A DNA stretch of 44,448 nt from the IMG/VR virus record IMGVR_UViG_2851949629_000004; one strand, 5' to 3'. This document shows positions 24,001-30,000 of the stretch, piece by piece (position 1 is the first letter of the stretch; each line of letters starts with the position of its first letter). Made by a program: the position numbers. Source of the stretch: a virus (lineage: Duplodnaviria; Heunggongvirae; Uroviricota; Caudoviricetes).

Positions 24001-27000
24001 CAGTTGATTAATATTCAGCACCAGGTTTTTCAACTCATGATCCATATTTCCTCCGGAGAGCTTTAAACATGCATCGTGCGAACAACTTTAAGAAAACGCG
24101 TTCGATGTCGAACAAAAAACACTCAATTCGACATACAAAAAACAAATAATCATTAATAATCAATAAGATGTAAAGATGATGGTGGCCGATAAAAATGCAA
24201 AAACTAGCCTTTTTCCGCGACGCTCCCGCCCCGTGGCAGGCCACCCCACCGGGAGGACCCGTCAGCCTGACAGCCATGACGAACGTCTGATACAGCACCC
24301 TGCATGAATGGCATCGGGATAATCCAGAAAGGAATAGCATCGTACCCACAAGAATCTGTGTGAGTGTCCTGTTTCTTCCACCCCCGCACAGGACTGGCGA
24401 GCATGAGGGACAAACCCGCGAATCATTAGCGCGGTAAAAACCCGGTGTGCATCGTTTTTGATTATTCCCGCACACTCTCGCAGAAGGAGTTCCCCGTCGG
24501 GCTACGGTCTCTGTTAATACGGGAATACGGCGACGATACAGCGCATGATGTGTCAGGCTTGAATACCTTTATCCGTTAAAAGGGATATCAGTTAAGTTAT
24601 CCCGTGTAGGGTATAAGCCATTATCAAAGCCACTCTGTAGGGAGTGGCTTTTGTAATGGCAATAAAAAGCCCCGCGAATACGAGGCTAAATCCTGGTATT
24701 TGTAATGACTGGCTCTTATCTCAACGCAGCCCCTTACCGCGCGCAAGATGCTCAATATCAAGCATCAGCAATGAGATGTTTAATCTGGATTCACTCCAGA
24801 AGTGATCACCACCCTGTCTACAGAGCCAGATGTGAAGGATGATAAGTAAAATTATCGCTATCATCGAAGGCATTGCGTCCTGATGTATTCCTGAAGCGTT
24901 CTCAGTGCTGTTTGGTCGCTGATGATTCCGTCCCGGATACTGAGAACGTTTCGTCCAGCAACTGGAGATAGTTCGACGGTGGCATCATTGCCCATGCCGG
25001 AGGCGCTGGAGGTTTCGGCTGAGGATGGCACAGGGCATTTTCCTTTGACGAACACCCGACCACCATTATCAAGCTTGCGCCGAAGAGCATCATTTTCAGC
25101 TTTCGCATCAGCTAACTCCTTCGTGTATTTAGCATCGAGTGCATCAGCAGAACGCTGGCGCTGCTGCATGTCAGTAATGGTGGCGGTCGCCTGCTTCAGC
25201 TCACTGACTTTTTTATCTCGCTGTTCTTTGTAGGCGATGGCGTTATCACGGTAATGATTGACCGCCCACGACAGGCAGACGATGATGCAGATAACCAGAG
25301 CGGAGATAATCGCGGTTACTCTGCTCATTGTTGCCCCCACAAACAGACTTCACGCTCAATCTCACGACGAGTCATCAGGCCTTTCCATTGCTTACCGCCA
25401 GCGTATGTCCAGCGACGTAGCTGGTCACATGCGCCTTTGATATCGCCCTGGTTTATTTTGCGAAGAAGCGTCGATGTTCTGAAATTGCCAGCACCCACGT
25501 TGTAGACGAACGAGTAAAGAGCGCCGCGCGTTGTTTCCGGTATATCGACTTTGATGTACGGGTTAATTTGTCTGGCGACCGTGGCAAGGTCTTTATTCAG
25601 GAGGGCTTTGCATTCTGCTTTGGTATACGTTTTACCGAGCATGATGTCTTTTCCGGTGTGTCCGTGACATACAGTCCATACGCCAACGATATCTTTGTAT
25701 GGTATGTAGCTGACACCTTCCAGGCCATCGTCACCACTTGGGCCAGTGATTAACACTGATGCTATAGCAATTGCTCCGCCACCAATAGCAGCAGCAACTG
25801 CTTTTCGTAATGATGGAGGCATTATTCACCTCTCGCAGCCTTGCGCTTATCTTCTTTAATCTTGAAATAAAGGTTTGTCAGGTACGTCAGCAGGCCAAAT
25901 ACCAGGCTACCCAGCACACCTATTGCTGCCCACTGTGAGGGCGTGACTTTATCGAGCAGCTGTAAAAACCAGTAACCGGCACTACCTGCTGAGGTGCCAT
26001 AGGCGACACCCGTTGTTAACTTATCCATGGATTTCATAACCCCACCTCGCAGATGCGGGTGCTGTGTAATGGAAATAAAAAGGCCACCTGCGTGGCCACC
26101 AGATTATTTCCCCACCAGCTCGTTTATCTCTTTCACTGTCTGGTTAAACCGCTCTGACTCAAGCTCAACACCTAAGGCCCGACGCCCCAGCGCCATTGCT
26201 GCTTTTATTGTGGAACCGGATCCCATAAAAAAATCAGCAACCAGATCACCAGGTCGACTACTGGCATTGATTATTTGCCTGAGCATATCCGCCGGTTTCT
26301 CACACGGATGTTTACCCGGGTAGAACTGAACGGGTTTATGCATCCAGACATCGGTATAAGGCACGGAGACTGATACGGAGAAATAGCGCCGGAGAGATTT
26401 AAACTCATCCAGCAATTCAGAATATTTGCGATTCAGTGAATCATAAGATGCCACCAGCTGGTGGTGTGGTTGTTCCAGTTGTTGTTCCTGAAACTTCTCT
26501 GCCGCTATACGGGAAAACAGTGCCTGTAACTTCCGATAGTCAGCCTCATTCGGCAACTGCCACTGACTGGCACCAAACCAGTGGGAAACCATATTTTTCT
26601 TACCTGTGGCTTCGGCAATTTGTTTTGCCGTTATACCCAGTTCGGCACGAGCATCCCTGAAATACGATATCAGCGGTGCCATTATGTGCTGTTTGAGTGC
26701 CCTTTCTTTTGCCGCATAGCCGTCACTTTTGCCGCGATATGGCCCCTGGTAATGTTCAGCAAACAGAACGCGCTCTGTGGCAGGAAAATATGCGCGCAGA
26801 CTTTCTTTATTACACCCATTCCAACGTCCGGACGGCTTCGCCCAGATGATATGGTTAAGCACGTTGAAACGTTCACGCATCATGATCTCAATATCAGATG
26901 CCAGGCGATGCCCACAGAACAGGTAAAGGCTTCCGGCAGGTTTTAACACCCGCCAGAACTGGGCCAGACAGTGGTCCAGCCACTTAAGGTAATCTTCGTC

Positions 27001-30000
27001 CCCTTTCCACTGATTGTCCCAGCCGTTGGGTTTCACCTTGAAGTACGGCGGATCGGTAACAATCAGGTCAATGGAATCATCAGGCAGGGACTGAATAAAA
27101 TGCAGGCAATCAGCGTTGATTAAATCAACACTGTTTATTTTTACAGTATTTTTCATGGATCAGTAAGCGTAACTCTGGTAGGCTCACTCTGCTTTTGCGC
27201 TAAAGCAGTGGGCCGTGGTTCGCTTGTGACCAGTAAGCATGAGCGAATGGCTGGCAGGTGCTACCAACACCCACCAGCCGCCCATTTTCACAGCAGGAAA
27301 CCGCCATTACTGGCAGCGTCTGAATTTATTCCCGTACCCGCCGTTATCCTTCGCCAGACCCGCCAGAACTAACTGAGTCAGTATTAACTGGCACCGGGCT
27401 TCGCTTACTCCGGTAGTTCTCGTCATCATGCGTGGCGTTACCCACTTGTCAGCAGGTAAGAAATGAAGGACTGCTGCGGCGGTTTCTGTCATATCTTGCT
27501 GTTTTAGCATGTCTTTTTCCCTTCTGGTTAACATGACATACCAATAACTCTTGTCTAAAAAGCCAGCAAGATAAAAAGTCAGTATTCACGACCACCAGCG
27601 TGTTTACTGTACTGCACCAGGTTTACAGGTACAAAAAAACCGCTCAGCGGCGGGTTTAAGTTGTGTGGCGAAGTAACCACTCTTAACAGCATATTTGATT
27701 TTTTACGATTGTAAACGGTTGATTATTCATCTCCAATAAAAATAATTGTGTGGGTATGCCCTTAACAATGGATAAGAAACATGAATAAAATGACTGTATT
27801 ATTACTTAGCGCAACTATCATTTCAGGTTGTACTTCTTCCGTACCATTGATAAAGAAAACTCAATCAGGAAAACCTGAGGGGGTTTATCAAAATACGACA
27901 AAAGATAAAGTCAAAGATGCCCTTGTGAATTACTGCAATAGTAGAGGGTTGATAATTTACAACGCGGATAACAGCAGTGTTATATGTGGTAAAGAACTGG
28001 AAGGCGGGTCTGCTGTTTTTGGACAAATGTTAATCGGCAATGCCTATTCAACAACCCCGGTATCAAAAGTCAGATTTACTATCGCTCAAGTTAATAACGA
28101 TACAAAAGTGTGGGCCGATATGTGGATGGAAACTCAAATGGCAATGGGGCAAGTACAACAAATGGCTATAACAGACAACGCAAGCAAAAACACTATCCAA
28201 CAACGTCTTGATGAATTAAAACCTTAAGTAAATTAATTAAATAAAATGGGGAGAATAAATCGGCTCCCCACACATTAAACTGATTCAATTACCCCCTCAA
28301 TAAGAGGTCTTCTAACGATCCATCTCTAGCTCAATTTCTAACATCATTAACATGCCATCAACTACACCTTCAGCCTTTTGCAATAAACGCCCAACCCAGC
28401 AATCAGAACGCCCATGTTTACGGGCAAGCGCCATAAACGTCATACCACCTACATAATAATCCACTAATAAATCGTGCAAATCGCTGTTGTTCTTTTTCAG
28501 GCGAGCCATGCATCCACAAATGATCATCGCGTCATCGTCACAACATTGCGGGCGGGATTTTACTTTTGAAGGGATTAGTCCTTTAAATCCTGCAGCAATA
28601 GACGACCAAGTGACATCCTCGTGATTATTTGCCACCCATGCCCCCCAACGTTCAAGAACCATTTGAATATCACGCATCAACTTTCTCCACAAAATCAGGC
28701 CAGCACGCCAATTGCCAGCGCACGATCGATAAAACGAAATATCAGCTCCAGCTGGGAGCCATACTTCTCTTCAAATGCCACGGTATCCGCATGCAGCTCG
28801 TCGTGATGCTTTCTGCACAAAGGCAACACAAAAAGGTCATGCGCTTTTGTACCCATTCCACCCTGACCGTGGCCTATCAGGTGGTGGGGATCATCAGCAG
28901 GCTTTCCACAACATGCACACGGCTGTGTCTTAACCCAGCGCGTGTACTTTTCATTAACCCAGCGGCGGCGTTTTGGGCGTAACATAAAAGACTCCGGCGA
29001 CTCCGGATCCACTTTCAGCGCCAGCACCTTTTTCGCTTTATCCTGGATGATGCTGGTGGCAGGAACCGAAGGCACAAGGTCACTTTCCCGGGTGACAGAC
29101 GGCACAACAGGCTTCGGTAATCTCAGTGCCTTACGGGCTGCACTTTCCGGTAAGGCATCCGCCAGGTCATTACGAATCAGCCACCAGCACAGTTCCGGCA
29201 TTGTCACAACGTGACTGTCATCAAAACCGAGATCCCGACGCACAACAGACAACACCCAGCGGGCACAGTTATCCGTTGCCATTGATTCCAGCCGTTCCGT
29301 GAACTGATCGCGCAGCTGGTTATCGCAGTGCCAGCACAGACGGATTGCACCCGGAGCGTGTCGCATTGTGGTCATGTTCTCGCTGTGCCAGTCGGAATGA
29401 GGCCACTGGCAGCCTTTTTCACGAAGTAACCAGCTTTCAAGACATTCCACGCCACCAGCACGACGGATCACTGCCTCATTGCGGAACACGGCCCGAACGG
29501 CAGGATCATCCGCCAGCGGTTGTGATGCCGCCGGAACGGCACCACTAGCGAAAGATGAATAACGTTCCGGCTCAGGCTCCAGCAGGACACGCCCCTGCAT
29601 AAACAGGGGCATCAGCTCTGAACCTGGCCTGAACAATACGATCCCCATACGCGGGGCAATTTCAGGGGTCAGTAGTGCTCTCACGGTCACCTCAATGAAC
29701 GGTATCGAGCAGCTTTAACAGCTCAGGGAATCGGGATTCGAAGAAATGCGGCTGCGTCTCGCGCGGATTTGCGGGACTGGTGATGTTCTTGCCGAACATG
29801 CAGCCTTTCGCCGTCAGCGACCAGAATTTTTTGATGTTGTTAATCCCGGTACGGCTGTATCGTTCGCGCTGCTCGACGATCCCCAGCTTCACCATCTGGT
29901 GATATGCCTGATTAGCCGTCAGGCGGATACCATACTGTTTCAGCAGTGCACTCAGTGACAGTGTCGGGCGACTTGAGCCATCGTGTGCATCAGCAGGAGC

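Follow-up and report, generated by a model that had tools for sequence, protein, structure and literature searches.

In phages lambda, 82, 933W and H-19B, the late promoter pR' lies directly after the gene of the antiterminator Q, and in the Sakai Stx phages experimental mapping has placed a constitutively active pR' beside Q (PMC7547250). In E. coli K-12, the prophage DLP12 has the order quuD, antisense nmpC, a homologue of pR' (at 4695–4777 of the DLP12 locus, L023: TTTACG-N16-TATGCT...TAAGAGTGGTTAC...) and essD. The DNA methyltransferase M.EcoGII, for its part, acts on adenine whatever the surrounding sequence; its expression is toxic, and its lysogen keeps it silent (PMC5778455). Here we describe the interval between Q and the holin gene S in a stretch of 44,448 nucleotides from a virus of the Caudoviricetes (IMG/VR record IMGVR_UViG_2851949629_000004), referred to below, at its full length, as the window. 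The Q–S distance is 2274 bp, and the interval holds a gene for a small lipoprotein on the strand opposite to the late genes, a gene for a 67-residue protein and a gene for an orthologue of M.EcoGII.

We argue that this interval consists of two independent cargo slots which flank the late promoter, and that it is not a single island; this is the best explanation for the whole, and we give it a probability of about 0.75. Both cargoes are of known kinds and sit in known slots: the methyltransferase belongs to a family that is already characterised, and the lipoprotein adds to the envelope proteins encoded by morons. Only the conserved leader that precedes the methyltransferase gene might come as a surprise to a specialist. 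The features described in an initial annotation of this stretch, which had treated the interval as one accessory island, were found within a few bases of where it had placed them, and its lipobox, its beta-class motif order, its lack of a nuclease and its hairpin before S agree with our analysis. Our results also bear out that the interval is accessory cargo, and that the methyltransferase and the small open reading frame (ORF) belong to one module of the late operon, which terminators insulate. The features are collected in Table 1.

Table 1. Features of the Q–S interval and of its two bounds (positions in the window).
Feature	Position	Strand	Details
S21-type holin gene S, first lysis gene, bounds the interval	25822..26037	-	PF04971, E 2e-35
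Terminator-like hairpin between methyltransferase gene and S	26082..26097	-	GGCCACGCAGGTGGCC then UUUUUAUUU; z -3.6
Beta-class N6-adenine DNA methyltransferase gene, M.EcoGII orthologue (SfV orf48)	26104..27156	-	350 aa; PF01555, E 2.4e-42
Conserved structured element, helices P1–P5	27157..27294	-	ends 8 nt before the methyltransferase ATG; covariance-model match 147 bits
Minimal winged-helix protein gene (phrog_331; SfV orf47)	27307..27510	-	67 aa; ATG with GAAGGG Shine-Dalgarno
First terminator-like hairpin 3' of predicted pR'	27632..27655	-	CCGCUGAGCGG then U7; hairpin itself 27651-27639
Conserved initial transcribed region	27657..27687	-	includes TAAGAGTGGTTAC at 27685-27673; covers the equivalent of 933W 'qut'; once in window
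Predicted late promoter pR'	27688..27715	-	-35 TTTACA 27715-27710; -10 TATGCT 27693-27688; aligned with annotated 933W feature; consensus scan 9/12
Predicted sigma-70 promoter of the lipoprotein gene	27719..27746	+	TTGATT-16-AATAAT; consensus scan only, 9/12
Lipoprotein gene (phrog_3152)	27781..28227	+	148 aa; N-terminus MNKMTVLLLSATIISGC; lipobox I-S-G-C, Cys17
Hairpin in the gap between Q stop and lipoprotein stop	28250..28269		GGGGAGCCGAUUUAUUCUCCCC; z -2.9 minus strand, -2.6 plus
Q antiterminator gene	28312..28677	-	PF06530, E 2e-51; 121 aa counted from ATG

The phage genes of this region are on the minus strand. In the direction of late transcription, Q (whose ORF, when called mechanically, starts at a TTG at 28692) is followed by a gap of 84 bp with a hairpin, the lipoprotein ORF on the opposite strand, the ORF of the 67-residue protein, the methyltransferase gene, a second hairpin and S, which opens a lysis cassette made of an S21-type holin, a SAR endolysin and Rz/Rz1. 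A search for tRNA genes found none in the interval. All the ORFs of the interval have homologues, and we therefore consider them to be real genes rather than chance ORFs.

The two-slot explanation depends on where the late promoter is. The minus strand of the window from 27716 to 27628 aligns with the DNA of H-19B and 933W that begins at the end of their Q genes, and in the 933W record (AF125520) it is the aligned part that carries the labels 'pR' putative late promoter', 'qut' and rho-independent terminator. The three-way alignment of the window, 933W and H-19B has a mean column identity of 87% over these three elements. The Q protein, a member of the Q82/933W family, is itself 83% identical to that of H-19B and 79% identical to that of 933W. 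A pR'-like element was also aligned in DLP12 and in PhiR30_1. In the whole window the motif occurs a single time, pointing away from the lipoprotein gene. Judging from these alignments, the late promoter is not directly after Q; its homologue lies beyond the lipoprotein gene. The sequence of the -35 box and of the spacer is common only to phages with a Q of 79% identity or more to that of the window (H-19B, 933W, DLP12, PhiR30_1 and 1H12), and it differs in cdtI and in the O104:H4 prophage, whose Q proteins are 43–50% identical, though the region downstream is the same; this distribution is consistent with a Q-specific site. Finally, the Q protein of the window ends in LEMDR and does not have the C-terminal tail of 23 residues of the 933W and H-19B proteins, the coding sequence of which overlaps their pR'. 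The junction of the insert therefore coincides exactly with the point where the Q core ends.

More generally, we note that the C-termini of Q proteins vary with the cargo that follows, which indicates that recombination joins new sequence immediately after the Q core.

According to the initial annotation, the polymerase antiterminated by Q has to read the lipoprotein gene in antisense; this does not hold, since the sole pR'-like element of the window, at 27715–27628, is beyond that gene. One may nevertheless imagine that a pR' exists immediately 3' of Q, in the 84 bp between 28228 and 28311, and that the Q-modified polymerase silences the lipoprotein gene in lytic growth by reading it in antisense. 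This is where pR' is found in the four phages cited at the outset, and the gap does contain a weak match, TTGAGG..TTAATG, and a hairpin which has a U-rich tail on the minus strand. However, the promoter scan returned no site with 9/12 matches in this gap, and the gap does not resemble the pR' of any phage with a Q of this family, while a complete homologue of the pR'-qut-terminator unit is present at 27716–27628; moreover, in DLP12 and PhiR30_1 the same pR' element lies beyond the antisense porin gene. We regard a promoter immediately after Q as very improbable. A pR' beyond the lipoprotein gene corrects the map, in that a cargo which seems to belong to the late operon precedes the promoter of that operon, and the same applies to DLP12-like prophages in general.

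The first hairpin downstream of pR' is the left edge of a module that is common to SfV, mEp460 and Ayreon; it is annotated as 'terminator' in the records of SfV and Ayreon and as 'possible rho-independent terminator' in that of 933W. The transcript predicted from pR' has no match in Rfam. Some observations weigh against the arrangement that we propose. The 3' end of the short pR' RNA of the Sakai Stx phages maps 258 nt downstream and not at the first hairpin (PMC7547250), so that the hairpin at 27651–27639 may be only a partial terminator. It is also important to keep in mind that the promoters and terminators described here are predicted from matches to a consensus or transferred from homologues.

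The first slot is occupied by an insert of approximately 595 bp (27717–28311), which separates the stop codon of Q from the predicted pR', two elements that abut or overlap in H-19B and 933W. The GC content is 35–39% in the lipoprotein region versus about 50% in the flanks, and the copy of the gene found in Salmonella is likewise AT-rich with respect to its own flanks. The predicted promoter of the lipoprotein gene is back to back with the -35 box of pR', and we describe the gene as a moron that sits in the gap between Q and the predicted pR' and is divergent from the latter. At the other end of the insert, the hairpin at 28250–28269 is terminator-like on both strands, with a U-rich tail only in its minus-strand version, and it probably acts as a terminator. 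The insert would thus be self-contained, with its own predicted promoter, the lipoprotein gene and a hairpin terminator, and the lipoprotein should be expressible from the repressed prophage because its gene would be transcribed divergently from pR'. The Q-modified polymerase would not cross the insert, and antisense transcription of the lipoprotein gene would occur only if transcripts of the early operon ran on beyond the hairpin at 28269–28250. The predicted timing of expression changes as well: the lipoprotein would be made in lysogeny and not be suppressed by late transcription.

The same slot accommodates other cargoes in related elements: an OmpD-like porin in PhiR30_1, the lipocalin Blc in 1H12, orf53/54 in cdtI and two antisense ORFs in the O104:H4 prophage. 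Antisense cargo of the outer membrane directly after Q is not a novelty either, being already present in the classic nmpC layout of DLP12. The lc porin of phage PA-2 is a further example of a porin in such a slot. Two phages, PhiR40_1 and PhiR55_1, have the same layout as the window, with 98.7% identity across the region. They have been used as infective phages, and late genes can therefore be expressed normally with this layout.

Regarding the lipoprotein itself, the cysteine of the lipobox is invariant in 20 of 20 homologues, in which two further cysteines are nearly invariant, and the lipid-attachment model LPAM_1 matches 6 of the 20. The protein is predicted to be lipidated at Cys17, and the threonine at position +2 would direct it to the outer membrane, where it is predicted to face the periplasm. 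PHROG 3152, of 'unknown function', is matched over the full length of the protein, which has no match to any Pfam, NCBIfam or PADLOC family. Its fold is an alpha/beta helix-grip-like domain. The search of its profile against the sequences of the PDB gave no match, Foldseek returned no viral structure at E<=0.001, and literature searches with the accessions of the lipoprotein and with phrog_3152 returned no papers. An exhaustive profile search (E<=0.001) shows that the family, which has no annotation, comprises 823 clusters at 50% identity; some of the cellular members have C-terminal PDZ or BamD-like TPR domains.

Of 5426 complete E. coli genomes, 184 have the lipoprotein gene in this context. 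In other Enterobacterales the homologues are 50–72% identical, and every context that was inspected is a prophage, in which the position of the gene differs: between the tail genes K and I in Salmonella and Jejubacter, after the tape-measure gene in Citrobacter, in a P1-like element in Enterobacter and in the nin region in Phytobacter. A homologue from Paraburkholderia adjoins tail and lysis genes. No conserved neighbour or partner gene was found. Neither is there a linkage to a receptor-binding protein: the C-termini of the J proteins of the carrier phages are unrelated, the positions of the lipoprotein gene vary and, in the window, 18 kb separate it from J.

Small outer-membrane lipoproteins encoded by accessory genes of phages or prophages have already been described: Bor in lambda and DLP12, Cor in phi80, N15 and T1, and Llp in T5. 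Cor and Llp block the phage receptor. The lipoprotein of the window resembles them in these respects; it shares no Pfam, PHROG or NCBIfam annotation with any of the three, the comparison of sequences having been made with BorD only. Homology to Bor was ruled out (BLASTP against BorD, E 0.10 over 42 residues), and the initial annotation was thus right in considering the protein to be unlike Bor. From the context of the gene, we commit ourselves to a role in lysogenic conversion at the level of the envelope. Within such a role, the single function that we find most likely is that the protein interferes when other phages infect, which we put forward tentatively and on the same grounds. The lipoprotein may instead be a factor of host fitness or virulence comparable to Bor or Lom, contributing to serum resistance, adhesion or tolerance to envelope stress, and have nothing to do with exclusion. 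We find this somewhat unlikely: the protein has no sequence similarity to Bor, and the fact that every stand-alone homologue inspected is in a prophage suits a role of phage against phage at least as well. If interference with other phages is indeed its function, the lipoprotein may be the first of a new family of envelope factors by which phages exclude their competitors. In any case, this unannotated family of 823 clusters is a tractable candidate for a new function in lysogenic conversion or exclusion.

The window contains a second envelope moron, an outer-membrane gene of the Lom/Ail family (5077–5676, minus strand, PF06316, E 2e-120) which is located between J and the tail-fibre gene.

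The second slot, downstream of pR', carries the methyltransferase module. The order of the motifs is that of the beta class, with DPPY (residues 35–38) preceding FxGxG (residues 309–313, in FFMGSGS, 309–315), and there is no nuclease gene adjacent to the methyltransferase gene. The enzyme is 82% identical, with 0 gaps over 348 residues, to a protein of 349 residues from the O104:H4 prophage, which is the published M.EcoGII once errors of transcription in the printed sequence (taken from PMC11551740) are set aside. It is also 89% identical over its full length to Anc291, a reconstructed ancestor which was assayed and found to be non-site-specific; the target-recognition domain is included in this identity, as it is in that to M.EcoGII. 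The role in the protection of DNA that the initial annotation had suggested fits this relationship to an enzyme that is silent in lysogens.

It may be argued that the enzyme is site-specific, either as an ordinary orphan methyltransferase or as a Dam-like one, since most PF01555 enzymes are, since M.EcoGII has in M.PflMI its nearest confirmed site-specific relative, and since the phage already has an enzyme of the Dam family (at 31230–31916). Against this, both of the close relatives, at 82% and 89% identity including the target-recognition domain, were measured to be non-site-specific, which makes site specificity improbable here. It must be conceded that the non-specificity of this methyltransferase is deduced from its 82–89% identity to two assayed enzymes, which weighs against this part of our explanation.

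The Dam-family enzyme (minus strand, PF05869, E 1e-45) is encoded in the early region, in its nin-like part, which gives the phage two adenine methylases, an early one of the Dam type and a late one of the M.EcoGII type.

The rarity that the initial annotation implied for the methyltransferase does not survive: the module is present in 1156 of the 5426 complete E. coli genomes (21%), in up to 8 copies each, so that the enzyme qualifies as the common late gene which that annotation had itself named as a finding against its reading. The conservation of the module holds whichever Q the phage uses, and in prophages of Salmonella and Plesiomonas the same pair of winged-helix and methyltransferase genes is found between Q and the holin gene. 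As for the hairpin that closes the module (26097–26082), none of 200 shuffled sequences folds equally well, and the homologous site carries a terminator annotation in the records of SfV and Ayreon.

In the mechanism that we propose, late transcription would start at pR' (27715–27688) and meet the terminator hairpin at 27651–27639; once loaded, Q would allow read-through into the gene of the 67-residue protein, a structured leader of about 140 nt, the methyltransferase gene, the second terminator and then S, R and Rz. The methylase would be made only late in lytic growth, and the DNA of the progeny would be blanketed with N6-methyladenine before packaging, which would confer broad protection against restriction in the next host. 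We propose that the methylase has terminators on both sides because the enzyme is toxic. M.EcoGII is a widely used reagent for chromatin footprinting, and the present analysis places it in its natural setting: near the start of a late operon that depends on Q, between terminators, behind a conserved structured leader and, in most cases, a tiny winged-helix protein. This setting gives testable ideas on how a lethal non-specific methylase is controlled and on why 21% of the complete E. coli genomes contain it.

In Ayreon (locus L003), there are two copies of the terminator that follows pR' (3699–3737 and 4373–4416), and they flank an inserted late-strand gene of 141 codons, which suggests that cargo is inserted downstream of pR' by recombination at the terminator.

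The spacer of 150 bp between the small ORF and the methyltransferase gene is more conserved than the genes on either side of it. A structure of five helices was drawn from the sequence of the window and then tested on a plain MAFFT alignment of 38 sequences, in which 80% of the positions concerned are paired, versus 28–48% when the partners are slid, and 20 pairs change on both sides, versus 6–10 in the slid controls; none of 500 shuffles reaches the observed values. With one genome taken per species, the element is matched in 51 of 80 upstream regions, always ending at the ATG of the methyltransferase. The covariance model gives one strong match (97–158 bits) in each of 58 loci, all at the same position (58 of the 87 sources), and the element is spread over many genera of the Enterobacterales; in the window the only match is at 27154–27294. 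In the alignment fitted to the model, which leans towards the structure by construction, 88% of the cells pair (30–42% when slid) and compensatory changes are seen in 26 of 39 pairs (3–13 when slid). RNAalifold, applied to the raw MAFFT alignment, recovers only part of the structure, owing to register shifts in P2. Rfam has no match at E<=1 in 24000–29000, and at E<=10 the region 27100–27350 gives only two matches, both at chance level and on the plus strand, opposite to the leader.

The ATG of the methyltransferase gene is not preceded by a Shine-Dalgarno sequence, which may be so because the methylase is toxic. In our own reading, a conserved UGAUC just upstream of the ATG could pair with the tail of the 16S rRNA. 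The element is a probable cis-regulatory leader for a toxic gene. We suggest, with more reserve, that it represents a previously undescribed class of cis-regulatory RNA that gates the translation of the methyltransferase, either as a sensor of a protein or small ligand or as a structured ribosome-entry site that replaces the Shine-Dalgarno sequence; this is a possibility to which we give rather less than even odds. If true, it would explain how phages deploy a methylase that modifies every adenine without killing the cell too early.

The strand on which the element operates is ambiguous, and this is a difficulty for such a leader: the comparison of G.U with A.C pairs favours the mRNA strand for P2 (39 versus 11) and P5 (63 versus 3), and the opposite strand for P3 (A.C 107, G.U 5) and P4 (28 versus 4). 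The element may then act as DNA, being a binding site for a protein or a promoter, or as an antisense RNA, rather than as the folded leader of the methyltransferase mRNA, and indeed a winged-helix DNA-binding protein is encoded just upstream of it. This is in our opinion rather unlikely. The 26 of 39 pairs that are maintained by compensatory changes, with a comparable signal in the alignment that was not fitted to the structure, would not be needed in a linear protein-binding site; the counts in P2 and P5 favour the sense strand; no antisense promoter passes the scan; and the element is present in 20 loci that have no recognisable winged-helix ORF. These 20 loci also rule out a dependence of the leader on that ORF.

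In Photorhabdus and Xenorhabdus (loci L080–L107), a shortened variant of the leader, about 85 nt upstream of the methyltransferase ATG, is reduced to GUGAAAUGG, the P2 hairpin and CAUUCGCC, and its score with the covariance model is only 21–26 bits.

The winged-helix ORF has a mechanical length of 75 codons, of which 67 are counted from the ATG. In many relatives (L042, L043, L076 and L087 among others), its stop codon either precedes or falls within a hairpin that has a U-run after it, which looks like an additional intrinsic terminator ahead of the methyltransferase leader; this feature is weak in the window (27295–27315).

Elsewhere in the window, the early region encodes a protein with a PerC-family transcriptional activator domain (31883–32377, minus strand, PF06069, E 1e-9). 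In enteropathogenic and enterohaemorrhagic E. coli, PerC-like prophage proteins are known to regulate the LEE pathogenicity island. Between Rz and the gene of the small terminase subunit, about 800 bp (24046–24860) have no convincing ORF and only sub-threshold matches in Rfam (STnc560, 19 bits, E 0.84); this stretch probably includes the cos region.

Compared with the Stx phages 933W, H-19B and Sakai, the window has a -35 box, a spacer, a -10 box, an initial transcribed region and a first hairpin that all align. In these phages, however, the Q gene is longer (144 codons) and pR' falls within its 3' end, whereas 595 bp of cargo separate the two here. The homology to the Stx phages stops after the first hairpin, and the 74-nt StxS-S part of the short transcript StxS (PMC7547250) is absent from the window, where a StxS-S homologue is accordingly ruled out.

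DLP12 and PhiR30_1 are close to the window in the first slot, with a Q of the same family (84% identical), an outer-membrane gene on the opposite strand, the pR'-terminator element and an S21-type holin. Their cargo is a gene for a 16-strand porin, of about 1.1 kb, in place of a lipoprotein of 148 residues from an unannotated family, and DLP12, unlike the window, does not contain the methyltransferase module.

In the second slot, the block that runs from terminator to terminator (from 27656 to before S) is 90–99% identical at the DNA level in SfV (orf47-orf48), mEp460, Ayreon, cdtI and Stx2c phages, and 77% identical in phiP27. SfV and Ayreon have a different Q (about 250 residues) and a different promoter-proximal sequence, and their similarity to the window begins only at the terminator (27656). 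The gene of M.EcoGII in O104:H4 (Murray et al. 2018, PMC5778455) is, as here, located after pR', the terminator and the gene of an identical 67-residue protein (WP_000917724.1), and before the holin gene. There, tRNA genes and the nanS-p esterase gene come between the methyltransferase and the holin, whereas in the window S follows directly.

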